DNA from: a virus
Virus record (IMG/VR): IMGVR_UViG_3300025128_000015
Span: 1-64,000 of that record
Strand: one strand, 5' to 3'
Length of the DNA stretch: 64,000 nt
Positions 12,749 through 64,000 of this stretch are shown here, piece after piece (position 1 is the stretch's first letter; each line of letters begins with the position of its first letter). Below the pieces are notes generated by a model, which did not search any database, was not told the DNA's origin, and saw only the letters and a list, made by a program, of their open reading frames with translations. The position numbers and the translations under genes were made by a program.

Positions 12749-13531
12749 ATGAGTCAGGTCGATGGCAATTTAACTGTACAAGGAGGCATTAAGTCTCAGT
12801 ATAAGAGTGATATATATTTACCACCACCAGTGGTCTATTTGAGAATGAACGAAGGAACAGGTTCAACCGCCGCAGATTCTTCAAACGCCGGCAATGATCT
12901 TGACGGTACATTAGGAGGTACAGCTTCTTGGTCGACTGTATTCAAGAATGGGCCATATGCGGTAGCATTCGATGGAGACTCTGATTATATAGATATGGGT
13001 AACAGTACTACTTTGGTGCCAAACACTGCCTTTACAATTTCTTACTGGGCAAGAGCAAATTCTTTTACAGGATACACCAGAATGGTTTCAAAATTCCCAA
13101 CTGGCGCAGGTTCACCTTCTTATTCTTACACTATTTTAACGGGAAATGGTACGGGTCAAGTTAGATTTTTTGTTATGCAGGCATCTAACACTGGCTCTGG
13201 AACAGTCTTGATGACCAACAGCGCAGAAATGTCTGTCGACACTTGGCATCACATTGTATGTACTTATTCAGGTGGAGACAATAGAATGCGTATTTATGTC
13301 GACGGAGATCTAAAAACGGCTACGCTTACAGGGACAGTACCTTCTTCTATAAATCAAGGCACAGCAAAATTGTCTTTAGGAGCCAATCTGGCAGGTTCTG
13401 TTGCGAATCGTCAATATTGGGATGGATATATGGACGAGTTCTCTATTTGGAATGTAGAGCTTACAGCAGACCAAATTTCTTATATTTATGGAGCCGGCTC
13501 ACCACCTGATTTATCTGTTGGTATACCATAG
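12749..13531 (+). CDS. LamG/concanavalin A-like lectin domain protein
   Basis: Motifs YLRMNEGTG, AVAFDGDSDYI, FTISYW, WHHIVCTY, MRIYVDG, WDGYMDEFSIWNVEL. Confidence 0.85.
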   Translation: MSQVDGNLTVQGGIKSQYKSDIYLPPPVVYLRMNEGTGSTAADSSNAGNDLDGTLGGTASWSTVFKNGPYAVAFDGDSDYIDMGNSTTLVPNTAFTISYWARANSFTGYTRMVSKFPTGAGSPSYSYTILTGNGTGQVRFFVMQASNTGSGTVLMTNSAEMSVDTWHHIVCTYSGGDNRMRIYVDGDLKTATLTGTVPSSINQGTAKLSLGANLAGSVANRQYWDGYMDEFSIWNVELTADQISYIYGAGSPPDLSVGIP

Positions 13532-13543
13532 GAGAAAATAATT

Positions 13544-14344
13544 ATGAGTCAAATTGATGGAAACATGATAGTACGAGGAAACACAACTGTACAATATCAG
13601 AGCAGTATATATACTCCGTCTCCAATTGTATATCTTAAAATGAACGACGGGTCAGGCACAACAGCTAGCGACTCTTCTAGTGCCGGCAACAATCTGAATG
13701 GAACTTTAGGCGGTGACGCATCATGGACATCTACTAAATATAAAAATGGACCTTATGCTGTTGAATTTGACGGCACCGGAGATTATATTGATTTAGGGAC
13801 AAGCACCACGCTTAAACCTAATATTGCTATGACCATCGCGGCCTGGGTCTATGCAGATGATTTCGGTTCTGGCTTTGCTGCCATTCTTTCTTGTTGGCCT
13901 GGTTCCGGCGCCGAATCCAATTATTCTTTTTTTCTTGGCACAGGTGACAGCGGCGCCGGCAACGGAAAAGTAGATTGGCTTGTCATGAAACACCCCGCCG
14001 GCGGCTCTGGAACTTGGCTACAAACTGACAGTGCTGAACTCACAGCAGAACAATGGCATCATGTTGCTGTAACCTATTCTGGCGCAAATACTAGAATGCG
14101 TATATACATTGATGGTTCTTTGAAAGACGCTACTCATGTAAGGGAGGCGGTACCTTCTCAGATTAGCCAAGGAAGCCATAATGTTGGAATTGGGCTTAAT
14201 TATAACGGTTCTGCTTCATATCCTTATCCATGGGATGGTGCTATAGATGAATTATCGATGTGGGATGTTGAACTTACGGCAGACCAGATATCTTATCTAT
14301 ATGGCGGAGGGGTCGTTCCAGATGTCTCCAAAGGTATACCATAA
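13544..14344 (+). CDS. LamG/concanavalin A-like lectin domain protein (tandem paralog)
   Basis: Motifs YLKMNDGSG, FDGTGDYI, MTIAAW, WHHVAVTY, MRIYIDG, WDGAIDELSMWDVEL. Confidence 0.85.
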   Translation: MSQIDGNMIVRGNTTVQYQSSIYTPSPIVYLKMNDGSGTTASDSSSAGNNLNGTLGGDASWTSTKYKNGPYAVEFDGTGDYIDLGTSTTLKPNIAMTIAAWVYADDFGSGFAAILSCWPGSGAESNYSFFLGTGDSGAGNGKVDWLVMKHPAGGSGTWLQTDSAELTAEQWHHVAVTYSGANTRMRIYIDGSLKDATHVREAVPSQISQGSHNVGIGLNYNGSASYPYPWDGAIDELSMWDVELTADQISYLYGGGVVPDVSKGIP

Positions 14345-14405: not shown

Positions 14406-15350
14406 TTGTCACAAAGTAAAAAGATAAATATTCTGAGAAGAGTTTTGGGTAATTTCTACAACTCTAGCGAAGAATTATTATTTTATTGCCCTAAGTGCAA
14501 TCATCATAAAAGAAAGATGTCTGTCAATATAACTAAGGATGTTTTTAAGTGTTGGATCTGTGATTACCATGGTATTTCAATTCGTAAGCTGATTAGAAAC
14601 CACGGATCCTTTAAGGATTTGGCTGCATGGTCAGAGCTTACAAATGAAGTAGATATTTCGTCTTTTGGTGATAACTTGTTTGAGAAAGAGCAAGCAGAAG
14701 AAGAACAGAAAATACCTTTACCAGAAGAATATATATCCTTAGCCAATAAAAACTCTTCTATGTCTTCGCTCAGGGCTAGAAATTATTTGGCTTCTCGTGG
14801 ACTAACAAAAAGAGATTTTGTAAGATGGAAGATAGGATACTGCGAAGAAGGTGAATATGCAGGTCGTATTATCATTCCTTCATTTGGCAAAACAGGCTAT
14901 GCAAATTATTTTATTGCTAGGACCTATACTGATAATTGGAAAAAGTATATGAACCCTCCAGCAAAACGAGATATTATCTTTAATGAGCTTTATCTGGATT
15001 TTGATAAAGATCTTGTTATTGTCGAGGGCGCCTTCGATGCTATTGTTACAGGTCCAAACTCTGTTCCCATTTTAGGATCAACGTTGCGAGAACAATCTAA
15101 GTTGTTTCAAGAGATTATTAAAAACGATTCAACAGTCTATATTGCCCTTGATCCCGATGCGGAAAAGAAAGCAACTTTCTTAATCAAGAACCTTTTAAAA
15201 TATGGTATAGAAATATATAAAACAGATATAGCTCCATATGATGATGTAGGAGAGATGTCAAAAGAAGAGTTTAAAAATAGAAAGTCTCAATCTAAACGCA
15301 TAACATCAGAAGATTATTTGTTATTGCGCCTACAAAGTATGATGCCATAA
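14406..15350 (+). CDS. DNA primase (Zn finger + TOPRIM)
   Basis: CPKC...H...CWIC zinc finger; GRIIIPSF; TOPRIM VEGAFDA and ALDPDA; TTG start. Confidence 0.9.
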   Translation: MSQSKKINILRRVLGNFYNSSEELLFYCPKCNHHKRKMSVNITKDVFKCWICDYHGISIRKLIRNHGSFKDLAAWSELTNEVDISSFGDNLFEKEQAEEEQKIPLPEEYISLANKNSSMSSLRARNYLASRGLTKRDFVRWKIGYCEEGEYAGRIIIPSFGKTGYANYFIARTYTDNWKKYMNPPAKRDIIFNELYLDFDKDLVIVEGAFDAIVTGPNSVPILGSTLREQSKLFQEIIKNDSTVYIALDPDAEKKATFLIKNLLKYGIEIYKTDIAPYDDVGEMSKEEFKNRKSQSKRITSEDYLLLRLQSMMP

Positions 15351-21526: not shown

Positions 21527-24500
21527 ATGGCTACAACTTATGGATTAGCGGCCGAATTTCAGGCGCTATTGAATACAGAGATTCCAACTGGAGCAAATGA
21601 TAAGGCGTTTTTATACGCTTCAGGCTCCGGAGCGGACGCAGCTTTGTATGCTAAACTTGGGGACAATACCCAGGTAGCGCTCATGACATCCGGATTTTCG
21701 CTACAAGATACTGCTAATGGCGGTATCGCAGATTTTACTTATGACGGTACTGCAGACGTAACTGTCAAGGTCGACCCAACTAACGCTACTGCTATTACGG
21801 CAGTTGCTGATGGCGACCTTGTTCTTGTCGCTGACGCATCTGACAGCAACAATCTTAAAAAGATTACTCGTGCTCACTTTATCGAGTCTGCCGCTCTTGA
21901 TTCTATCAATATTGACGGTGGCGCAATTGACGGCACACCGATTGGAGCCAGTAGTGCAGCTGCTGGTACGTTCACTACAATCGTTGGTACCAAGATGAGC
22001 GCTTCTAGTGACTTAAACGTCGTTGGAAATGCTTTCGTAGAAGGTACAATGAATGTCACTGGAGCCGCTAGCTTCGCTGGCAGCGTAGATCTCGGTGACG
22101 CTACAGGTGATACTATCACTGCTACAGGTCGTTTCGATTCTGACTTAGTACCAAGTACTGACGGAGCCCGCGATCTCGGAGCATCTTCTCTTGAATGGAA
22201 AGATCTTTACATAGATGGTGTTGCTTACATCGATAGTCTTCAAGCTGACTCCCTTGGTGCAGCTCTTGATGCTAACAACCAGGCGATCACCAATATTAAT
22301 GTAGACTCCGGTGCTATTGATGGCGCCACCATCGGCGCTAACAGTGCCGCAGCCGGCACTTTTGCTGCTCTTGTGGCAACTTCTATGTCAGCTTCAGCCG
22401 ACCTTAACGTTGTCGGAAGCGCTTTCGTTGAAGGTTCTCTTAACGTTACTGGTGCTTTAAATCTTGCAGGCGCTCTCGCCGCTTCTGCACTTAGCGCCTC
22501 TGGCGACCTTAACGTTGTCGGTTCTGCTTTCGTGGAGACCAACATGAATGTCACAGGCAATCTTGTTGTTAACGGTGACGTTGATTTAGGTAATGCAACC
22601 AGTGATACAATTACGGCCACTGGACGCTTCGATTCGGATCTTGTTCCAAGCACTGATGGAGCCCGTGACCTCGGTGCATCCAGTCTTGAGTGGAAAGATC
22701 TCTACCTCGACGGTGTTGCTTACATCGATGACCTTCGTGCCGACGCACTTGGTGCTGCACTCAACTGTGCAAGCCAAGCGATGACAAACATCAATGTCGA
22801 CTCCGGCGCAATTGATGGTGTTACAATTGGTACAAACTCGGCTGCAACTCGTGGAGTATTTACTCACCTAACTGCTTCACACATGAAAATTGATAACAAC
22901 TTAATTGTTGTTGGAGATCTTCAGGTACAAGGTAATATTGATAGCATTACTGTTACTCAAAATACTTTAGAAGTTACAGATAAGCTTATTATCGCTGGTG
23001 CATCTGGATCGTCTGCTGCTGTAAGCGGTGGTGGTCTTATGATTGGTGGTAGTGATCTTGCAAACGATGAAGTTGCTTCTGTTCTTTGGGATCACGGCAA
23101 TAGTGCACTTGACTTCAATATCGGTACTACAACTGAAATGCGTCTTCAAAATGGTGTACTCCGCCCTGAGACAGACAATGACATTGATTTAGGTGCATCT
23201 GGTGCTGAGTTTAAGGACCTTTACCTTGATGGCGTTGCTTACATCGATGACCTTCGTGCTGACGCTCTCGGCGCCGCCTTAGACTGCGCATCGCAAGCTA
23301 TGACTAACATCAACGTAGACTCAGGTGCTATTGATGGAACTACCATCGGCGCTAACAGTGCTGCAGCCGGTACATTCGCTGCCGTTGTAGCAACTTCGAT
23401 GAGTGCCTCGGCCGACCTCAATGTCGTCGGAAGTGCTTTCGTTGAAGGGTCGCTTAATGTTACTGGTGCTTTAAATCTTGCTGGTGCACTTGCTGCTTCC
23501 GCACTTAGCTCTTCTGGTGATCTTAACGTTGTTGGTTCTGCTTTCGTAGAAACTAACTTAAACGTCACCGGTAACGCTGTTGTACAGGGCAGCTTAACAG
23601 CAAACGGTACAGTCCAGCTCGGTAATGCCTCATCTGATGTTGTTACTGTGACTTCACAGTTAACAGCTTCTGAAGGTGTTGGGTTTGGTGCTAATAGCTC
23701 GGCTGACATGACTGCAGGTGCAGTTGATATCCTCATGAAAGATAACGAAGCCGCCGCACTAGAGATTAAACAAGGTTCGACTAACTACCTGACGTTCCGA
23801 ACAACTAACAGCCAAGAGGCTATCGTTTTCGGTTCTAATGACGTCACTTCGGTTATTCCATCTGTCGACAGCGCTGTTGCTCTTGGCCACTCTTCTTACG
23901 CTTGGTCCAGCCTTACTGTAGATGCAATTGATCTTAATGGTCAAGGAAACATTAGTATGGGTGGTACCGGTCGTATTGATCTCGATGCTGATGATGATAC
24001 TTCTATCCGCGCTTCTGCTGATGATGTTATTACTTTCGAAGTTGCTGGTGCTGATGAATTCCAGATGAGTGCAAATATGTTCGGTCCTGCTTCGGCAGAC
24101 GGAGCTTCTCTCGGTGGAGCAAGCAACGAGTGGTCTGACCTTTACCTTGCAGACGCAGGTGTGATCTACTTCGGTAGTGACCAGGATATCCTCCTGACAC
24201 ACGATGCTGATCAGGGGCTCACAATTGAGCAGGGTACAGATGCTGCTGGTGATCCAATTCTTACTCTTAAGACTGTTGGTGATCTTGCTAGCGGTGCTGA
24301 GCTTAAGTTTGCTCTTGATAATGGTGCAGGCGAAGCTGACGATGATCAACTTGGTGTGATTTCGTTCTACGGTGACGACGATGGTGACAACGCGACTAAG
24401 TACGCTCAAATCAAAGTCTTAGCTGAAGACGTAACTGATACTGAAGAAGATGGTAGTATTACTCTTTCTGCTTTGGTTGCAGGTACACTGCGTGATATCA

Positions 24501-24883
24501 TGGTCATTGGAGATATTGCCGCCAATAGTGCAGGTGTTACATTACCTAACAACAGCACGTATGGTACTATGAAGGCACACTCCTACGTCACTTACTCGGA
24601 TGAAAATCTTAAGACTAATATCCAGCCAGTTGAGAATGCTCTTGATAAGGTTAAGAACCTTCAAGGTGTGACATACGACTGGAAGAGTGACGGATCCAGT
24701 GATATTGGTTTCATTGCTCAGGAAGTTGAAAAAGTTATACCTCAGATTGTTAAATCTAGTGGCACCGAAGGTAGCTACGCGATGAACTATTCTCGCGTAA
24801 CCGCCCTCCTCGTCGAAGGTATTAAAGAACAGCAGGCTCAAATTGAGAACTTGAAAAATGCTCTTGCTAGCATTAAAAAGTAA
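21527..24883 (+). CDS. Long tail fibre with internal repeats and C-terminal peptidase S74 chaperone
   Basis: 1118 aa, Ala/Gly/Asp-rich with repeated modules; C-terminus YSDENLKTNI...GVTYDWK...IGFIAQEV...MNYSRVTALLVEGIKEQQ. Confidence 0.88.
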   Translation: MATTYGLAAEFQALLNTEIPTGANDKAFLYASGSGADAALYAKLGDNTQVALMTSGFSLQDTANGGIADFTYDGTADVTVKVDPTNATAITAVADGDLVLVADASDSNNLKKITRAHFIESAALDSINIDGGAIDGTPIGASSAAAGTFTTIVGTKMSASSDLNVVGNAFVEGTMNVTGAASFAGSVDLGDATGDTITATGRFDSDLVPSTDGARDLGASSLEWKDLYIDGVAYIDSLQADSLGAALDANNQAITNINVDSGAIDGATIGANSAAAGTFAALVATSMSASADLNVVGSAFVEGSLNVTGALNLAGALAASALSASGDLNVVGSAFVETNMNVTGNLVVNGDVDLGNATSDTITATGRFDSDLVPSTDGARDLGASSLEWKDLYLDGVAYIDDLRADALGAALNCASQAMTNINVDSGAIDGVTIGTNSAATRGVFTHLTASHMKIDNNLIVVGDLQVQGNIDSITVTQNTLEVTDKLIIAGASGSSAAVSGGGLMIGGSDLANDEVASVLWDHGNSALDFNIGTTTEMRLQNGVLRPETDNDIDLGASGAEFKDLYLDGVAYIDDLRADALGAALDCASQAMTNINVDSGAIDGTTIGANSAAAGTFAAVVATSMSASADLNVVGSAFVEGSLNVTGALNLAGALAASALSSSGDLNVVGSAFVETNLNVTGNAVVQGSLTANGTVQLGNASSDVVTVTSQLTASEGVGFGANSSADMTAGAVDILMKDNEAAALEIKQGSTNYLTFRTTNSQEAIVFGSNDVTSVIPSVDSAVALGHSSYAWSSLTVDAIDLNGQGNISMGGTGRIDLDADDDTSIRASADDVITFEVAGADEFQMSANMFGPASADGASLGGASNEWSDLYLADAGVIYFGSDQDILLTHDADQGLTIEQGTDAAGDPILTLKTVGDLASGAELKFALDNGAGEADDDQLGVISFYGDDDGDNATKYAQIKVLAEDVTDTEEDGSITLSALVAGTLRDIMVIGDIAANSAGVTLPNNSTYGTMKAHSYVTYSDENLKTNIQPVENALDKVKNLQGVTYDWKSDGSSDIGFIAQEVEKVIPQIVKSSGTEGSYAMNYSRVTALLVEGIKEQQAQIENLKNALASIKK
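21950..23580 (+). repeat. Intragenic modular repeats in the tail fibre
   Basis: Five copies of SASxDLNVVGxAFVExxxNVTG (about 22001, 22391, 22496, 23405, 23510) and three of DLGASxxExKDLYxDGVAYID...TNINVDSGAIDG (about 22170, 22665, 23185). Confidence 0.85.
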
Positions 24884-54500: not shown

Positions 54501-55297
54501 TTGTTAATAAAAAGAAGGTCAATTATGCGCTCATTGATTTTATAAGAGATTCGATGATGGAGCTTTTAATCCCAGCAATGGGTGCAATTAATACAGGTTG
54601 CAAAGACGGCACGCAGATCGCTTCTCCTCTTAAAGCAGTAAAGCCTCGACTAACTTCTTTTAGTGCTCGTCGCCAACAAGGTTTAAGTCCCAATGATGGC
54701 AGTATATCTGTTAGTTTAGATAAAAAAGAGGCTGCTTTATTGGTTGGTAATAAACTGATAGGTAATGAAAATATTGTCGACGGTAAAGAACATTTGAAAC
54801 ATTTTTTGGTTATTTATGATGCCGGCTTTTCGACAGCAGCTAGCTTGGAAAAAGGGAGAAAGCCAAAGCTTTATGATACAAACCTTAAGCATAATATTCC
54901 TCATGTTTTTATCGGTGCCAACAGAGGAATTATGAGATCAGTCAGCTTTAGAAAAAGCACTGTTCCATTTTTGCAGGAATCTAAGGTGCTTGACAGGGGT
55001 GACACTGATTTCGGACTCTTGAGAGAAAAATACGATGTTACTCTAGAAACTGTAGGTAATCCTCACTTTCACCAAGGAATGAGATTCTATTTAGATCCAA
55101 CATTTACTGGTATGTCTAGCCACAACATCGACGTCGTTCAAGGAGTCTTAGGTTTAGGCGGATATTATGATATTGTAGATGTAACATCTGATATAAGCAA
55201 TTCCGGATTCAAAACCAGCATTGTTGGCTCTTGGCAGGCTTTTCATGAGGGCTATGATTCCAAAAAACGCCATGTTGACCCCTGTAAGGACAAATAA
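51584..55297 (+). CDS. Baseplate hub protein (gp27/late control D-like), large
   Basis: 1237 aa; C-terminal hub-like pattern YDVTLETVGNPHFHQGMRFYLDP...LGLGGYYDIVDVTSDIS; position. Confidence 0.6.
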   Translation: MSSLNFTNIIDKIKSDPVVGDCATKLSAQQLLEAENGAHLETLAAISSKMGHYFRLFKVFKRGRSAILKKIKADEEITLEGLVGLGFRAGGEFNAKHFKDGKYEQVTSQELLKSFGEDINDRADLAKNVSFGEIIEKLNDYAYLGARILGAHQNLQQRVEPGGTDLRKSASIIGMPTLYRGPASRPTDEDKKVLKGIKKLINERNSTVVGQLAVDNNSETKIRQDKFKFALFKSIQDLLESNIGKMFLFYTNPNQTAPLSAGTSLFESIHAPLYLSPSRGKVTSEDVSAKTKAFIKEILNVKLVVSDKKVEKTYKELFQERFLVRCRAFISGDVETTEDKFPQINSELELKRKRLQNVRCVLPLFEDLYSSSNIATFTDSGMTGVYSKNYKHTLNSLGLKSASSKKKFFTSQHHPLIFAYTKDSHFFVNKLFNKGDSRSTLKSFLEATNTDISFLQPRIRVYKVFETQEGKEQEIPIEFSNKIELTKSSGVYERENAGIERVRIRRTGQTPATFDKLIDVNIRLIFDSINAFTKCRTTSIGKKKYSYVDLLRRPVELKQTDKQIGDVKRGASELERFGSKELEKFIDKAQEINIDSYSPDKFQIKLEVGWSFNDQVFQNQTAASKRARLEKFISETNLVMYLTLQTHDFTFRNDGTVSLDVRYMGRAGGQLIDAFQTNIFHTPNLGRLSKAVTVVDDILRFSADNKDFSVNRNVMQQRKNQLVHKLNTERSNLTSQVWKRLVDASVDPNNSNGSTLLSSASGNEAPTHFLRLNVPKSFLFFDAEFFTKLGVKTDESTTDKLKETASSRVTNTDLLLSYYRNKFLEGSASETDNLKLEVVAKKDSPTSAEGTNKNLKGEDAIKDPDLAQDPLRPEDFEEQLDDGTFDSQVFKNTYLTIPGGGDKKTSMYCLRYGSVVHSAIQNIWQFNPEGLKDIVVILASSRFESISGGVRHFNFADIPILFEDWKRFMIDKVVNKKKVNYALIDFIRDSMMELLIPAMGAINTGCKDGTQIASPLKAVKPRLTSFSARRQQGLSPNDGSISVSLDKKEAALLVGNKLIGNENIVDGKEHLKHFLVIYDAGFSTAASLEKGRKPKLYDTNLKHNIPHVFIGANRGIMRSVSFRKSTVPFLQESKVLDRGDTDFGLLREKYDVTLETVGNPHFHQGMRFYLDPTFTGMSSHNIDVVQGVLGLGGYYDIVDVTSDISNSGFKTSIVGSWQAFHEGYDSKKRHVDPCKDK

Positions 55298-55333: not shown

Positions 55334-56809
55334 ATGGCCAATACGATAAAAATATTTAATGCGGCACAAGCAGAAGAGATTGAAAGATATATAGCTCCTG
55401 CCACTCAGAACGCCAGCCTGTATGTGCAAAATATAATTGATTTTTCTCAAATGAATCATTATGGGCTCGTTGATCCTTCTGGACAAACAATAATGCCAAA
55501 GATTTCAAACGACACTTTGTTATCTTTAGAAAACGCGCAGACATACGGAATAAGTTCCGTTGGCGGATCTGCTCAGGTTTTAGATTTCGTTGCCGATGCA
55601 TTCACAGATATGTCAAGTTATTTACAATCGGTTAGATTCCGCGCAGGAGAGTATTCACCAAAAACTTACACAAACAAAGCCGGCCAAACCACAGAAACAT
55701 TCATACAAAGTTTGGTTCCCGCAAGCGGATATGTAAATCCTGTTTCGCTGCACAAAGAGCATGTTAATATTATCTATGACCATTTTATAAGATCGTATCT
55801 AGAGCAAAACAATCGTCACAAGAGCATAAACAATCATCGTGATTTTATAAAAATGTTTGTGAATTATGTTTTTAGCGACTTGTATACAGATATTGCCAAT
55901 ATAAACCTTTCTTCTCACATAAGAAGATCTCTCATTCCGATTGAGTGTAACGGTATTACAATTAAGCTGTCATCAATAGACACTAATGATCAAGCTGAAA
56001 TAGATGAGATATACTATGGAGATCCTAATTTTAACTTATATGCCTCTACTGTGCACAAGTTCGGATTTTATATTGATGAAAAGAGACCTTTTATGCTTGT
56101 GGCCAATCTACGCTCTAAGAAAATGAATGAATATGCTCAAAATAGAGGATCCTTCTTGGTAAATTCGACACCAGATTCAGGATATACTTCTGCTGGTGGA
56201 TTAGGGCATGTGCATGAATACGAGATAGACGCAAATGGAAATGGTAAAACAGGATATACCTCTGCTGGTCCTTATCACGAACACGTTATTGAAAGTTATT
56301 GTGTTAAACACGCGCAAATCGGAGCATCTCACAAGCACGAATTGCCAAGACAGGACGTGTTCACTAAGTATTATGTCCGGGCTCAAGAAAATGAACTCGA
56401 TCGACTCAAATCACTTCTTTTTAGAATGTACGATAGCTATATTAAGCAGAGTCCACAAAATATAGTCAATACTTTTCCTAAAGGAGCCCTCGTAAAGAAG
56501 GCGAGAATAAGAAAACCAGTAACCGAGAAAGATTTTGCTTTATCCATGTCAAATCAAAAATGGATTCGTCTGTATTTTGACCTTAAGATCAATGAAGAGA
56601 GAGTTATCTTAAAAAGAAGCAAGTATTTAAATATTGTCCGAAAAGCTCAAGAAATGTTGAAAGTCGCCACTGTACAAGAAGCGGTCGAGTATATCAATAA
56701 AGAAATCTATAAAAGGGTTCAAACTCTTGTGCAGGGTCCAAATGTAAACAGTAGCTACCATAATCTCCCTGGTAGCAATACTTTAAAGAAACTGTCTGAG
56801 TATTTTTAA
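55334..56809 (+). CDS. Hypothetical protein with internal HxH cluster
   Basis: 491 aa; GHVHEYEIDANGNG...YHEHVI...SHKHEL; last gene before the replication block. Confidence 0.6.
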   Translation: MANTIKIFNAAQAEEIERYIAPATQNASLYVQNIIDFSQMNHYGLVDPSGQTIMPKISNDTLLSLENAQTYGISSVGGSAQVLDFVADAFTDMSSYLQSVRFRAGEYSPKTYTNKAGQTTETFIQSLVPASGYVNPVSLHKEHVNIIYDHFIRSYLEQNNRHKSINNHRDFIKMFVNYVFSDLYTDIANINLSSHIRRSLIPIECNGITIKLSSIDTNDQAEIDEIYYGDPNFNLYASTVHKFGFYIDEKRPFMLVANLRSKKMNEYAQNRGSFLVNSTPDSGYTSAGGLGHVHEYEIDANGNGKTGYTSAGPYHEHVIESYCVKHAQIGASHKHELPRQDVFTKYYVRAQENELDRLKSLLFRMYDSYIKQSPQNIVNTFPKGALVKKARIRKPVTEKDFALSMSNQKWIRLYFDLKINEERVILKRSKYLNIVRKAQEMLKVATVQEAVEYINKEIYKRVQTLVQGPNVNSSYHNLPGSNTLKKLSEYF

Positions 56810-56837: not shown

Positions 56838-56854
56838 ACTTGAAGAGGTTTGTT

Positions 56855-58048
56855 TTGTATTTTCAGATTATTGATGATAAGACAGAATGCATTGGAATAT
56901 ATGCAAATGAAAAAATCTATTATGATGAAGTTCCATCATCGATCGCAGCAACCTGGAAATACGCGCCAATCCTCCGTGATCGTAATGATATAAAATACGC
57001 TAGCTTATATTGCGGAGATCACGACTTAACTCGTTCTTGCCCAGAACACTTGGAAAAGAGGCTAAGCAACATTTTAGATAGATTCCGAGCTTATCTGACA
57101 TCGTTCAAAGAAGCAAAGATATCTTTATATGATAACTGTTTTTATGATTTAGTTCCAGAGCGTTTTGTGTTAGAATATTGCGATGTTAAAAACGAGATTA
57201 CAAAACACATACTAGAAAACAACGACAAACCAAAAAACTACAATTTTCTCGTCTCACTCAGCAAAGTTTTGGAGGACATAAAATATTTGCCTTTAAATTT
57301 AGACTTTGCTGATTTTAACTTTGGATCAACAAGAGGTAGAATGTTCCACAAGAAGATCAAGCAAAAAGGACCAAACATTGTATATGATCTATTTGGTTCG
57401 AAGACTGGCCGCTTGACAACAAAGAAGAACAGCTTTCCAATACTGACTATGGACAAGAAATACAGAAGCATTATCAAACCAAAAAACGACTGTTTCTTAG
57501 AGCTTGATTTCAATTCAGCCGAGATCAGGACTTTTTTAGCCCTACAGGGACTTGAGCAGCCAAAACAAGATATCCATGCGTGGACAGGCAAAAATGTCTT
57601 TAAGGGGCAATTAACAAGGGATGAGGTGAAGAAAAAGTTCTTTGCATGGCTATATAATCCAGAAGCAAAAAATGATAAACTTGAAAGCATCTTCGACAAG
57701 AACAAGATTCTAGAGAAATATTGGAACGGATATAATGTCGAAACACCCTATAATAGAAAAATGGAAGCAGGAAAGAAGCACGCATTGAATTACTTAATTC
57801 AGAGTACAACCAGTGACTTGTTTTTACGACGAATGATCGACGTATGGCATCTTCTAAAAAATAGAACATCTCATGTGTCTTTCTGTATTCATGATTCTTT
57901 GGTGATAGACTTTTCTGTCGAAGATCGATCGCTCTTACAAGAAATTGTAGACAAGTTTTCAAATACAGAATTAGGATTCTTTAAGATCAACCTAAGTGCT
58001 GGCAAGAATTATGGTGAAATGAGGAAATTAGAATGGAAACAATCATAG
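56855..58048 (+). CDS. Minimal family A DNA polymerase-like protein
   Basis: TGRL, motif A LDFNSAEIR, motif B RDEVKKKFFAWLY, NYLIQSTTSD, motif C IHDSLV. The track start is 56840; TTG 56855 fits SD GAGG. Confidence 0.85.
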   Translation: MYFQIIDDKTECIGIYANEKIYYDEVPSSIAATWKYAPILRDRNDIKYASLYCGDHDLTRSCPEHLEKRLSNILDRFRAYLTSFKEAKISLYDNCFYDLVPERFVLEYCDVKNEITKHILENNDKPKNYNFLVSLSKVLEDIKYLPLNLDFADFNFGSTRGRMFHKKIKQKGPNIVYDLFGSKTGRLTTKKNSFPILTMDKKYRSIIKPKNDCFLELDFNSAEIRTFLALQGLEQPKQDIHAWTGKNVFKGQLTRDEVKKKFFAWLYNPEAKNDKLESIFDKNKILEKYWNGYNVETPYNRKMEAGKKHALNYLIQSTTSDLFLRRMIDVWHLLKNRTSHVSFCIHDSLVIDFSVEDRSLLQEIVDKFSNTELGFFKINLSAGKNYGEMRKLEWKQS

Positions 58049-58967: not shown

Positions 58968-59723
58968 ATGGCTATCAATATGGATAAAATGAAAGCAAGG
59001 CGAGAAGCCTTACAAAGCCGCGGCAGCGGTGGGAGCAACAAGGAAATGTTTTGGCGTCCACAAGACGGTGAGAGTACAATTCGAATTGTTCCAAGCGAAG
59101 ACGGTGATCCGTTTAAAGATTACTGGTTTCACTACAACGTAGGTAACAATCCTGGCTTTCTGAGTCCCAAGAAAAACTTTGGTGAGGAAGATCCTTTGGA
59201 TAATTTTGTCCGCTCCCTTTTCAAAGAAGGATCCGAGGACAGTATTAAAATGGCTAAGAGTTTAATGGCTCGTCAAAGGTTTTTTGCACCGGTTCTTGTT
59301 CGAGGAGAAGAAGAAAAAGGTGTAAGAGTCTGGGGATTTGGTAAAATGGCTTACCAAGAACTTTTGAATCTTGTTTTAAATCCGGATTATGGAGACATCA
59401 CAGATGTTGACGACGGTACTGATTTGGTAATTACTTATGGAAAGCCTCCAGGGGCACAATTTCCTCAAACCACAATCACACCACGTCGCAAGTCTTCACC
59501 GCTTACAAAGACAAAGAAGCAAACAAAAGATTATCTAGAGCAGGTACCTGATGTTACTACTCTTTTTGAGAAGAAATCACCTAACCAGGTACAAGAAATG
59601 CTAGACCAATTTTTGCTTGGAGAAGAAGACGCGGAAGAAGTGTCGACAGAGACTAAGAAGTACCAGAATAAATCTGATACTCCAACGTCTGTTGATCAAG
59701 CTTTTTCTGAGTTTGGACTCTAA
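58968..59723 (+). CDS. Single-stranded DNA-binding protein (gp32-like)
   Basis: FWRP..GESTIRIVP, PFKDYWFHY, RFFAPVLVRGEE, VWGFGK..YQ.LL, DYGDITD...G.DL; acidic C-terminal tail ending FSEFGL. Confidence 0.85.
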   Translation: MAINMDKMKARREALQSRGSGGSNKEMFWRPQDGESTIRIVPSEDGDPFKDYWFHYNVGNNPGFLSPKKNFGEEDPLDNFVRSLFKEGSEDSIKMAKSLMARQRFFAPVLVRGEEEKGVRVWGFGKMAYQELLNLVLNPDYGDITDVDDGTDLVITYGKPPGAQFPQTTITPRRKSSPLTKTKKQTKDYLEQVPDVTTLFEKKSPNQVQEMLDQFLLGEEDAEEVSTETKKYQNKSDTPTSVDQAFSEFGL

Positions 59724-59847: not shown

Positions 59848-60891
59848 ATGGTTTTACAAAAAGTACAAAATAATAGCGATATTAAGCCTGGGTTTAACGG
59901 GCAAGGCTATATCAATTTAAAAGATTATGATAAATTAAAGCCCATAGCTTTTAAACAAGCAGAATATTCACATCATGTCTTTGTTGATCTCAATGACATT
60001 GATACCGAAGATTCTCAATTCTGGAACATGGGTATTCGAGGAGAGGGTACTGATGAAGACGAAAGGATTGAGTCTTTCAGGGTTTCTTTTGGCCGCCATG
60101 GATGGATGACCTCATTCTGGTCACCTAGTATGGATGTTGAAGGAAATTGGCTAGGAGGACGTGGAAGGCTCCGTGCAGCAAAGAAGAACGGGGAAAGATG
60201 GGTACCCGTCGCCGTATATCGTAGAGCTGACATGTCAAAAAGAAACACTATTACAAACGGATTAATCGAGAATAAACACTTACCCCAATACGCCTCTACA
60301 TTTAAAGATTATATTGGCGCCGGCGTAGGACTCATAGCTGCCGGAGAGCTAAAAGCTGATGAAAAGTCCGTCCAGGTCTGGCTAAGAGAGGATGTTGGGA
60401 TCGATGATATATATGACAACTCTCGTGGCGGCGCCGTAACTCAGCTGGTCAAAAAAATCCTTGCAAAAGCAGCAGAGGATAAGTCTCTTGTCAGGGTACA
60501 ATCAGACAAGGCATGGAAAGACTGGATCGAATCTAAATTGGATCTGAAGAAGAACGAGTATGTGTTAATGAATACGAAAGACAACACTCGCTCTGTGAGG
60601 CTTTGGTGCAATCAGATATTGCCGGCAGTCGCAAATAAAAAAGATCCTGTCAATATTATTTTTTACGCTTCTGATTATAGTCCAAAAGAGTTGAGGAAGA
60701 ACTTAAAAGATAGAATTACCGAGCTTGATACGTTCTATAAGCAGTCCTATCAGCTTGTCAATAGTGGTATCACAGGCATTAATATTGATACGCCAGAAAA
60801 CAAGCACTATAAGATTCTAGGCGCCCTCCCTCAGATTGAAAAAGATCATGACATAGAAGGTAATCGTCTAGTAAAGATCGAGGAATATTAA
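59848..60891 (+). CDS. Protein with ParB/sulfiredoxin-like N-terminal domain
   Basis: RIESFRVSFGRHGW...DVEGNWLGGRGRLRAAKKNGERWVPVAV fits the ParB-N pattern (G..R..AA...G...VPV). Confidence 0.55.
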   Translation: MVLQKVQNNSDIKPGFNGQGYINLKDYDKLKPIAFKQAEYSHHVFVDLNDIDTEDSQFWNMGIRGEGTDEDERIESFRVSFGRHGWMTSFWSPSMDVEGNWLGGRGRLRAAKKNGERWVPVAVYRRADMSKRNTITNGLIENKHLPQYASTFKDYIGAGVGLIAAGELKADEKSVQVWLREDVGIDDIYDNSRGGAVTQLVKKILAKAAEDKSLVRVQSDKAWKDWIESKLDLKKNEYVLMNTKDNTRSVRLWCNQILPAVANKKDPVNIIFYASDYSPKELRKNLKDRITELDTFYKQSYQLVNSGITGINIDTPENKHYKILGALPQIEKDHDIEGNRLVKIEEY

Positions 60892-61703
60892 TGAAGACTC
60901 CACTAAGATATCCAGGCGGTAAATCACGCGCCGTTAAAACGATATTGGAGTTTGTCCCTGAAGACTGTGGGGAGCTATGCTCCCCCTTTCTTGGGGGCGG
61001 ATCTGTTGAACTAGCACTGGCCGAGAAGGGCGTCAAGGTTCATGGATACGAAGGGTTTAAACCTGTAGTTTGGTTTTGGCAAGCTATCTTAAAAGATCCT
61101 GAAAAACTCGCAGATCTAGCGGATTCATTCAGAAAGAAAAAGGTTTATGAGCATCAAGGCAAAAAGCTCAAAGAACGCGGATTACCCGAAAGAACATTTC
61201 ACAAATTAAAGAGAGATTTAGTTCGTGCTCTTAGAAAAGGCGAAGGTTTTAGTTTTGAACTAGCAGCCAAATTCTATGCGCTCAATCGAAGTAGCTTCTC
61301 TGGAGCGACTCTATCAGGCGGATTTTCTGAAAGAGCGTCCTACGCACGCTTTACAGATAGTCGATTAGAATATATAAGGAATTTCAAAGCTCCGAATCTC
61401 ACTGTACAACACGCAGACTTTAAAAAGTCGATAAAGAATCATGATTGCTTGTTATATCTTGATCCTCCATACTTTCTTGGAGAAGCTCGCAGCAAGCTAT
61501 ATGGAAATCTTGGCGATATGCATAAATTCTTTCCTCATTTATCTTTATATTCTGAGTTAAAAGAGAAAAAGAATTGGATTTTATCTTATAATAATTGCGA
61601 TGAAATTCGACATCTTTATAGAGATTATGATATTCATGATGCATCTTGGACTTATTGCATGACAGCTAAGGAATCTTCAGAGATTATTATTACCAATTTA
61701 TAA
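60891..61703 (+). CDS. dam: D12-class (Dam-like) DNA adenine methyltransferase
   Basis: PLRYPGGKS, PFLGGGS, YLDPPY, ILSYN; TAATG coupling to the ParB-like gene. GATC specificity is not demonstrable from sequence. Confidence 0.88.
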   Translation: MKTPLRYPGGKSRAVKTILEFVPEDCGELCSPFLGGGSVELALAEKGVKVHGYEGFKPVVWFWQAILKDPEKLADLADSFRKKKVYEHQGKKLKERGLPERTFHKLKRDLVRALRKGEGFSFELAAKFYALNRSSFSGATLSGGFSERASYARFTDSRLEYIRNFKAPNLTVQHADFKKSIKNHDCLLYLDPPYFLGEARSKLYGNLGDMHKFFPHLSLYSELKEKKNWILSYNNCDEIRHLYRDYDIHDASWTYCMTAKESSEIIITNL

Positions 61704-62217: not shown

Positions 62218-63318
62218 ATGGCAAGGAAAGCTAAAAAATTAGGAAAACTTAGTCTGGACGATATGCGAAACCTTATTAATCGTAAGGCAGGATTAGAAGT
62301 CGCCCACGATCTAAGAGAAGAGAACCCAACTGAGGTAAAAGAGTGGATCTCCACTGGATCAACTTGGTTGGACAACATTGTTTGCAGAGGAAAAAAGGCC
62401 GGCATTCCAGTAGGTAAAATTACTGAGATTGCTGGTCTAGAAGGAGCGGGTAAATCGTGGATGGCTGCAGAGATTGCTGCCAATGCTCAAAAAATGGGTA
62501 TTGACGTTGTTTACTTCGATTCAGAGTCTGCTATCGATCCAAGTTTATTGTCTAGGTTAGGCATCGACTTGGAAAGATTTCTTTATGTGCAAGCATCAAG
62601 TGTTGAATTTGTTTTAGAGACGATCGAAGAACTATTAGGCTCTAACGATAGTCAAATGTTATTTATCTGGGACTCTCTGGCTCTTACGCCGGCCATAACA
62701 GATGTAGAAGGTGATTTCAACCCTCAGTCATCGATGGCTGTGAAGGCTCGAATCTTGGCGAAAGGGATGTCAAAACTTACTGTCCCTATCGCCAACACAC
62801 AGTCAACATTTTTGGTATTAAACCAGCTTAAAACAAATATCGCTTCAAATCCTGCGCAGAGAATGGAGATTATGACAACACCGTATGTCACTCCAGGTGG
62901 AAAAGCTATGCACTATGCATATTCACTGCGCATTTGGTTAACCGGCCGAAAAGCTAAGTCTTCGTTTATTATGAATGGAGACGACCGCGTAGGATACCAA
63001 GTACAAGTTAAACTAGAAAAATCACGCTTTGGAACATCAGGACGAAGGTGTCATTTTAAAATTATGTTTGCTGGTGAAGTTGGTATTCGTAATGAAGAGA
63101 GTTGGCTCGAAGCTTTAATAGGCTCAGAAAACCTAACTCAATCAGGTGCGTGGTACACACTACACTTTGAAGATGGGACATCACAAAAATTTCAATCAAA
63201 AAATTGGCTTGAAAAATTAAAAAGTAGTGAACAGTTCCGTGAAAGAGTGTTAGAGTTAATGCATGAAGAGATTGTTTTGAAATACGAAAGAAAGACAGAA
63301 CAATCTTCTTCTACATAA
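62218..63318 (+). CDS. recA: RecA/UvsX-like recombinase
   Basis: GIPVGKITEIAGLEGAGKS (Walker A), YFDSESA, IWDSLA (Walker B), LNQL, PGGKA. Confidence 0.93.
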   Translation: MARKAKKLGKLSLDDMRNLINRKAGLEVAHDLREENPTEVKEWISTGSTWLDNIVCRGKKAGIPVGKITEIAGLEGAGKSWMAAEIAANAQKMGIDVVYFDSESAIDPSLLSRLGIDLERFLYVQASSVEFVLETIEELLGSNDSQMLFIWDSLALTPAITDVEGDFNPQSSMAVKARILAKGMSKLTVPIANTQSTFLVLNQLKTNIASNPAQRMEIMTTPYVTPGGKAMHYAYSLRIWLTGRKAKSSFIMNGDDRVGYQVQVKLEKSRFGTSGRRCHFKIMFAGEVGIRNEESWLEALIGSENLTQSGAWYTLHFEDGTSQKFQSKNWLEKLKSSEQFRERVLELMHEEIVLKYERKTEQSSST

Positions 63319-63786: not shown

Positions 63787-64000
63787 TTGAAAACTAAGAG
63801 ATTATTATTAATCGATCAGCTAAACTTATTCTTTAGATCGTATATTGTCGATCCATCGTTATCAACAAATGGACAACCAATTGGCGGATTAAAGGGAGTA
63901 ATTAAATCTTTACAAAAGATTATCAGAGAGTCAAAGCCAGACCAAGTTATTATCTGTTGGGATGGACAAGGAGGCTCAACCCGCCGCAAAATCTTAAATA
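63787..64000 (+). CDS. 5'-3' exonuclease / RNase H (FEN-like), partial
   Basis: TTG start, SD GAGG; LLLIDQLNLFFRSY...NGQPIGG...IICWDG.GGS..R runs off the window end. Confidence 0.85.
   Translation, partial: MKTKRLLLIDQLNLFFRSYIVDPSLSTNGQPIGGLKGVIKSLQKIIRESKPDQVIICWDGQGGSTRRKILN

Follow-up and report, generated by a model that had tools for sequence, protein, structure and literature searches.

A divPolA1-type family-A DNA polymerase, predicted to be almost thumbless, in a phage genome that also encodes DnaE

Results

The polymerase gene and its neighbors

The window, the whole stretch of DNA that was analyzed, covers positions 1 to 64,000 of a 189,594-bp IMG/VR record that CheckV rated 100% complete. 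The genes of this phage genome are on the plus strand almost throughout. Those of interest here, and one translation signal, are as follows; positions beyond the window are marked as genome positions.

14406 to 15350, plus strand: candidate DnaG/gp61-like primase (Zn-ribbon, DnaG_N, and Toprim in the correct order, each below the Pfam cutoff)
55334 to 56809, plus strand: gene for a 491-aa protein, found 5′ of the polymerase gene in 69 of 80 related loci
56843 to 56848, plus strand: Shine-Dalgarno sequence AAGAGG, 6 nt 5′ of the TTG at 56855
56855 to 58048, plus strand: divPolA1-type family-A DNA polymerase gene, TTG start, 397 aa
58033 to 58896, plus strand: gene for a 287-aa FtsZ/tubulin-fold protein, overlapping the 3′ end of the polymerase gene, including its stop codon, by 16 nt
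58968 to 59723, plus strand: gp32-like single-stranded DNA binding protein (SSB; PF08804, PHROG 1192)
62218 to 63318, plus strand: RecA/UvsX-like recombinase (PF00154, PHROG 97)
63787 to 64000, plus strand: start of a separate 5′-3′ exonuclease (FEN) gene, which ends at genome position 64764 (PF02739, E 6e-33; PF01367)
64800 to 66170, genome positions: DnaB

The longest polymerase frame runs from 56840 to 58048 (402 aa) and also opens with TTG. However, the TTG at 56855 is likely the true start, because it is preceded by the Shine-Dalgarno sequence AAGAGG, public gene calls for identical proteins are 397 aa long, and the consensus of the protein family opens at this residue. Residue numbers given below are those of the 402-aa frame; 5 is subtracted to obtain those of the 397-aa protein. 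No convincing sigma-70-type promoter was found directly 5′ of the polymerase gene. The nearest promoter-like site, at 55231 to 55258, lies 5′ of the 491-aa gene, which is probably cotranscribed with the polymerase gene. The 491-aa protein had no match in Pfam, PHROG, or the ESM Atlas. Three His-x-His-Glu-like motifs (HVHE, YHEH, and HKHE) lie close together in it and suggest a metal site.

The gene order is shared by the 80 related loci: a 1237-aa gene, the 491-aa gene, the polymerase gene, the 287-aa gene, and the genes for SSB, RecA, the 5′-3′ exonuclease, and DnaB. The set through the 5′-3′ exonuclease was complete in 40 out of 40 loci for which at least 6 kb of downstream sequence was available. 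The polymerase gene is the first gene of this conserved replication/recombination module. In the present genome, a 347-aa gene and a Dam-like methylase gene (59848 to 61703, plus strand) lie between the SSB and RecA genes. Among the 80 related loci, the methylase was matched in one and the 347-aa gene in none, and the two genes look like an insertion peculiar to this strain in a module that is otherwise fixed. Elsewhere in the window, the stretch from 22001 to 24000 has the highest G+C content (0.475 compared to ~0.38) and is the only one with a negative AT skew; it lies inside a 1118-aa open reading frame (21527 to 24883).

Catalytic motifs of a family-A polymerase

The first-pass annotation of this DNA had described a family-A polymerase of about 400 aa with recognizable motifs A, B, and C and with HDS instead of HDE in motif C, and this description held up. 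Motif A (DFNSAEIR) occupies residues 223 to 230, motif B consists of R260, K264, F268, and Y272 followed by N273, and motif C is HDS at residues 351 to 353, where the usual PolA has HDE; together, the three motifs span only 131 residues. The protein matched PHROG 17 (“DNA polymerase”) and Pfam PF00476 (47.5 bits compared to a cutoff of 34.3), the aligned part in the latter case being the motif C region only. A profile of 70 relatives aligned with residues 655 to 924 of Escherichia coli Pol I at an hhalign probability of 96%. In this alignment D223 corresponds to D705, E228 to E710, D244-I-H246 to D732-I-H734, R260 to R754, K264 to K758, F268 to F762, Y272 to Y766, N273 to G767, and H351-D352-S353 to H881-D882-E883. 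Almost all sequence-profile matches of the family were Pol I. The protein is a family-A DNA polymerase, with motifs A, B, and C set in a right-hand fold.

Conservation of residues was counted over 233 full-length relatives that are 30 to 50% identical to the query:

D223 (Klenow D705): 233/233
K264 (Klenow K758): 233/233
D352 (Klenow D882): 232/233
D357 (Klenow E887, by manual count, outside the hhalign mapping): 232/233
Q321 (Klenow Q849): 232/233
R260 (Klenow R754): 231/233
R191 (Klenow R668): 231/233
Y272 (Klenow Y766): 229/233
E228, the steric gate (Klenow E710): E in 206/233, D in 24/233
F268 (Klenow F762): F in 207/233

The position of Glu883 is the exception. It is Ser in 202 of the 233 relatives and Glu in only 5, and Ser at this site is a signature of the family. 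Since the catalytic residues, the steric-gate Glu/Asp, and the motif B Phe are conserved, the protein is apparently an active, dNTP-selective, template-dependent enzyme. An RNA polymerase activity is unlikely, given the same steric-gate and motif B residues.

The family is large. A word-indexed metagenomic search returned 1,874 protein clusters (90% identity) at an E value of ≤0.001, and nearly all of the best 120 of these 1,874 clusters are 390 to 400 aa long. An exhaustive search of 50%-identity representatives gave 887 matches, 257 of them at ≤1e-30, and IMG/VR holds at least 589 confirmed polymerase loci. Judged from sequence, the gene is not a fragment, because its length is constant across the clusters and its catalytic residues are invariant. 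No fused longer forms were found at an E value of ≤1e-10 among proteins of 696 to 2000 aa, which is a weak negative.

Exonuclease remnant, thumb stub, and short fingers

An AlphaFold2 model of the polymerase, built on the alignment of 70 relatives, had a pLDDT of 96.3 and a pTM of 0.93. Its top fold matches (Foldseek and VIA-align) were the large fragments of bacterial Pol I (Bst and Taq) and the apicoplast PolA; the Bst/Taq match had a Z score of 24.7 with 356 to 376 residues aligned. The structural alignment extended over model residues 3 to 395 and Bst residues 313 to 876, so that residue 3 superposes on Bst residue 313, which is within the vestigial exonuclease domain. The first ~105 residues of the model form three short strands and two long helices, and these superpose on the Bst/Taq exonuclease remnant. 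No DxE motif was seen in the N-terminal part, as had been noted before, and the 3′-5′ exonuclease families PF01612 and PF00929 had no match anywhere in the phage genome. The earlier reading that the protein has no exonuclease domain is therefore right in that no active exonuclease is present; it is not right for the fold, of which a vestige appears to remain. The first-pass annotation had also considered that this region might model as a proofreading exonuclease, and the model shows an inactive remnant instead. According to the model, the N-terminal part is not foreign sequence but what is left of the exonuclease fold, shrunken and no longer active.

The thumb and fingers had been described as shortened, and the alignments bear this out. 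From LNLD (residues 153 to 156) to TGR (residues 189 to 191) there are ~26 residues with one 13-residue helix, compared to ~107 residues between the matching points of Klenow, where thumb helices H and I and the tip are found; on its N-terminal side, this comparison is anchored by a weak HMM match. In place of Klenow helices H and I, the polymerase has short helices at residues 134 to 148 and 164 to 176. Overall, ~190 residues are missing relative to the Bst large fragment in the structural alignment, in agreement with the thumb estimate. A stretch of 270 residues in Pol I corresponds to only 214 residues at the C terminus of the protein, and the fingers lack ~46 residues, counted as alignment gaps, in loops and small helices. 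The modeled enzyme thus has almost no thumb, short fingers, and a vestigial, inactive exonuclease domain.

A second, full-length polymerase and the rest of the replication set

It had been proposed that the short polymerase is unlikely to be the main replicase and that a second polymerase should be sought in the rest of the genome. A full-length DnaE (Pol III alpha, 1144 aa) was indeed found, at genome positions 73311 to 76745 (L006:10311-13745), 15 kb 3′ of the polymerase gene. It has the PHP, Pol III alpha core, fingers, and HhH domains, and the PHP motifs HxH, DH, and DSH are present. The PHP domain is therefore a candidate proofreader, and DnaE may proofread its own products. DnaE was present in 10 of the 13 large related contigs (>54 kb); the three contigs without it are 46 to 54% complete, and the PolA gene in them is near the contig end. 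The family-B polymerase profile PF00136 had no match in the genome. Near the DnaE gene are genes for GroEL, dUTPase, IMPDH/GMP reductase, RNR, and adenylosuccinate synthetase. These results support DnaE, and not the short polymerase, as the processive replicase of the phage.

Several other replication functions were searched for in the genome. No match was found for ligase (PF01068 and PF01653), for the beta clamp (PF02768), for a DnaQ-like exonuclease, or for an AEP Prim-Pol. The clamp and the ligase are presumably those of the host. The primase candidate is ~42 kb away from the replication module and adjoins two tandem genes with ConA/LamG-like lectin domains (12749 to 13531 and 13544 to 14344).

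An FtsZ-fold protein encoded directly downstream

The product of the gene 3′ of the polymerase gene had been called tubulin-like, which is correct at the level of the fold. The AlphaFold2 model of this 287-aa protein had a pLDDT of 92.9 and shows the fold to be complete, and its best Foldseek matches were FtsZ (TMq up to 0.72), TubZ, CetZ, and tubulin. The T1 and T4 glycine loops are recognizable, but the T7 loop has not kept its acidic residues. The gene is directly 3′ of the polymerase gene in 78 of the 80 loci, and in 48 of these 78 the two genes overlap or abut. In 19 loci they are separated by 277 to 400 nt (mostly ~280 to 310 nt), and in 7 loci by 0.5 to 2 kb. The spacers, for instance L021:5922-6200, L016:1449-3379, and L041:11185-13138, could hold a small open reading frame or mobile elements. 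The overlap is not specific to this gene pair, because the upstream gene is packed equally tightly on the polymerase gene.

The family profile detected no homologue of the FtsZ-fold protein in Flavobacterium phage immuto, either in the two open reading frames downstream of its polymerase gene or in the rest of its genome, a search that had no positive control. This phage has a polymerase of the same kind. The suggestion that the tubulin-like protein may be an accessory subunit of the polymerase is thus so far unsupported, as it draws only on gene order, and synteny extends over the entire module.

Assignment to divPolA1

An enzyme type of this description has been published. Yutin et al. (Virol J 2024; PMC11348598) described divPolA1 in 14 phages, namely Flavobacterium phage vB_FspM_immuto and uncultured marine and freshwater phages with genomes of 155 to 190 kb. 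In divPolA1 the palm residues are conserved, the thumb is truncated, and the exonuclease is inactivated, and the genomes carry an additional, regular polymerase of family A, B, or C (PMC11348598). Replication genes are located downstream of divPolA1, and genes for GroEL/GroES and nucleotide metabolism are near the regular polymerase; according to the authors, it is divPolA1 and not the regular polymerase that occupies the conserved replication context (PMC11348598).

The polymerase studied here is a member of this group, an assignment that was made by comparison with the immuto protein and with the published description of the group. The immuto divPolA1 matched the polymerase by tblastn at an E value of 1e-6 and the family profile by hhalign at 98.6% (residues 104 to 393, 281 columns). 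The palm catalytic residues D223, K264, and D352 hardly vary or do not vary at all, the thumb is truncated to ~26 residues from ~107, and the exonuclease is lost, with neither a PF01612 or PF00929 match nor a DxE motif. The genome is 189,594 bp long and encodes DnaE as the regular polymerase. The gene context is also the same: SSB, RecA, FEN, and DnaB are encoded downstream, and GroEL and nucleotide-metabolism genes are near DnaE.

The immuto enzyme has the same short thumb stub, and the genes at its locus are arranged alike (PolA, two small open reading frames, SSB, RecA, 5′-3′ exonuclease, and DnaB). However, there are differences. The polymerase here is only ~22 to 26% identical to the immuto protein. 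At the R754, steric-gate Glu, and H881 positions, the marine subgroup is unchanged, whereas immuto has Tyr, His, and Tyr in the aligned columns. The regular polymerase is DnaE in our phage and a PolA with a 778-aa open frame in immuto, in whose genome neither DnaE nor PolB was found. Finally, the FtsZ-fold gene follows the polymerase gene here and not in immuto.

Comparison with other family-A polymerases

Like Bst and Taq Pol I, the polymerase has the TGR and DIH motifs, the motif A, B, and C residues, a Phe at the “B3” position of motif B, and a noncatalytic exonuclease remnant. Unlike them, it lacks thumb helices H and I and the ~190 residues counted above, its fingers are shorter, it has HDS in place of HDE and N in place of G after motif B, and the 5′-3′ exonuclease is encoded by a separate gene. 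A canonical bacterial Pol I was rejected as an identification, the protein being only 397 aa long, without a PF02739 match, with a separately encoded FEN, and with a truncated thumb.

In CCPol-MP of staphylococcal SCCmec, a PolA whose N-terminal domain is truncated carries out priming jointly with an OB-fold partner (PMC7581432; bioRxiv 10.1101/2022.12.02.518924). Both enzymes are family-A polymerases of mobile elements that have lost most of the exonuclease domain, and by analogy the phage enzyme might also work with other replication proteins. On the other hand, its adjacent gene encodes an FtsZ fold and not a small OB-fold partner, the gp32-like OB-fold SSB being encoded one gene further, and a DnaG-like primase is encoded in the genome. 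The family profile, searched against PDB sequences, matched no CCPol chain at an E value of ≤0.01, and a specific relation to CCPol in sequence was not seen.

In the split T7-like PolA of the S-SBP1 type, a separate 3′-5′ exonuclease gene is found beside the polymerase gene (PMC10201439). The phage enzyme is similar in that the polymerase domain has no proofreading domain in the same polypeptide. An arrangement with a proofreading subunit was nevertheless rejected: neither neighbor matched an exonuclease family in Pfam or PHROG, the downstream one has an FtsZ fold, and PF01612 and PF00929 are without a match in the genome. A 2023 classification of PolA enzymes lists no divPolA1-like cluster, and the same survey states that proofreading seems to be retained in all phage PolAs (PMC10201439).

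Discussion

The results indicate a phage that encodes a predicted short, nonproofreading polymerase beside a separate DnaE. The reading that we put at slightly better than even is that the phage divPolA1 is a catalytically competent enzyme that works beside a separate replicase and fills short patches as part of a split Pol I. Most likely, and by inference only, its role is distributive, nonproofreading short-patch synthesis, e.g., in Okazaki fragment maturation or gap filling. This role is favored because the enzyme has a Pol I-like active site and has lost its thumb, and because a regular polymerase is always present and the module always includes the 5′-3′ exonuclease. Deletion of the thumb tip of Klenow is reported to reduce both processivity and the affinity for DNA (Minnick et al., 1996). 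Without a thumb, divPolA1 would hold DNA weakly and add short stretches only, so its processivity would be low. It would act as the polymerase half of the split Pol I and fill short gaps on the lagging strand or at repair or recombination intermediates. RNA primers would be removed by the separately encoded 5′-3′ exonuclease, and the nick would be sealed by a ligase, probably that of the host.

Some observations do not fit well with the short-patch proposal. The maturation set is incomplete, because no phage ligase (PF01068 or PF01653) was found. The Ser in place of Glu883 in motif C of 202 of the 233 relatives may also count against gap filling. In addition, the family A and B replicases of T7 and T4 fill gaps themselves. 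For this reason, a role in gap filling only does not obviously explain why divPolA1 is universally retained, including in relatives whose regular polymerase is of family A or B (PMC11348598). Because these relatives keep divPolA1, the role may be broader or different, for example, in extending D-loops together with RecA or primers ahead of a hand-off. A more central role is also left possible because divPolA1, and not the regular polymerase, is in the conserved replication context (PMC11348598).

These broader roles were weighed against the short-patch role. The enzyme could be a recombination-associated polymerase that extends the invading 3′ end in D-loops formed with RecA/UvsX and SSB, during double-strand-break repair or recombination-dependent replication, in a role like those of Pol theta and Pol nu or of Pol I in repair. 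The SSB and RecA genes are downstream in every sufficiently long locus (40/40), and the lack of proofreading together with a reduced thumb is typical of the repair PolAs Pol nu and Pol theta (Table 1 of PMC10201439). However, synteny extends over the whole module, which makes this adjacency nonspecific; the polymerase carries no fused helicase or end-joining domain, and no longer fused forms were found. T4-type recombination-dependent replication, moreover, uses the replicase itself for D-loop extension. Such a role is unlikely. A role in priming, which the first-pass annotation had listed, is improbable. It would consist either of short extension of RNA primers followed by a hand-off, as with Pol alpha and Bacillus subtilis DnaE, or of true primase activity with a single-stranded DNA binding partner, as with CCPol-MP. 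CCPol is a precedent (PMC7581432; bioRxiv 10.1101/2022.12.02.518924), and here too there is a truncated N-terminal domain, with an OB-fold SSB encoded two genes downstream. Against this, the immediate neighbor has an FtsZ fold and not an OB fold, CCPol chains were absent from the PDB profile matches at an E value of ≤0.01, and a priming polymerase is not needed, since the genome encodes a DnaG-like primase candidate (14406 to 15350).

It is also conceivable, if quite improbable, that divPolA1 is the real replicase of the module, with a partner, possibly the FtsZ-fold protein, replacing the thumb as a factor that holds or localizes on DNA, and with the swappable “regular” polymerase in an accessory role. 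The fixed place of divPolA1 at the head of the module, compared to the variable neighborhood of the regular polymerase with GroEL and nucleotide-metabolism genes, would agree with this, as would the overlap or abutment with the FtsZ-like gene in 48 of 78 loci. But copying a 190-kb genome without proofreading would impose a heavy mutation load, the regular polymerase is always retained, the FtsZ-like gene was not detected in phage immuto, and the equally tight packing of the upstream gene makes the overlap nonspecific. The loss of the exonuclease and thumb and the altered motif C might finally be taken as signs of a decayed, nonfunctional remnant. This is extremely improbable, as the catalytic and DNA-contacting residues are invariant over 233 relatives at 30 to 50% identity and the length is constant across ~1,900 clusters. 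The short-patch role beside DnaE therefore remains our preferred reading.

The enzyme type itself is already published as divPolA1. The group turns out to be much larger than described. The published group comprised 14 phages (PMC11348598), compared to the ~1,900 protein clusters found here, which suggests that divPolA1 is a large, tightly conserved family of ocean viromes and not a curiosity of 14 genomes. It is an exception to the survey statement that phage PolAs keep proofreading (PMC10201439). A polymerase of ~400 aa that is almost thumbless in the model and yet has all catalytic residues is a near-minimal natural family-A polymerase and may interest enzymologists.

The most interesting loose end is the conserved FtsZ-fold pairing in the marine subgroup. 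In this subgroup the thumbless polymerase and the FtsZ-fold protein might work as a pair in which the latter, as a nucleotide-binding protein of cytoskeletal fold, tethers, positions, or clamps the polymerase at replication or recombination sites. We regard this as a long shot, but if it were true, the FtsZ-fold protein would be an accessory factor of a kind that is not known from any replication system. The value of the present analysis is a sharper hypothesis and a list of candidates and not a new principle. As divPolA1 is always paired with a regular polymerase, which varies among families A, B, and C, these phages offer a natural system for studying the division of labor between two polymerases.
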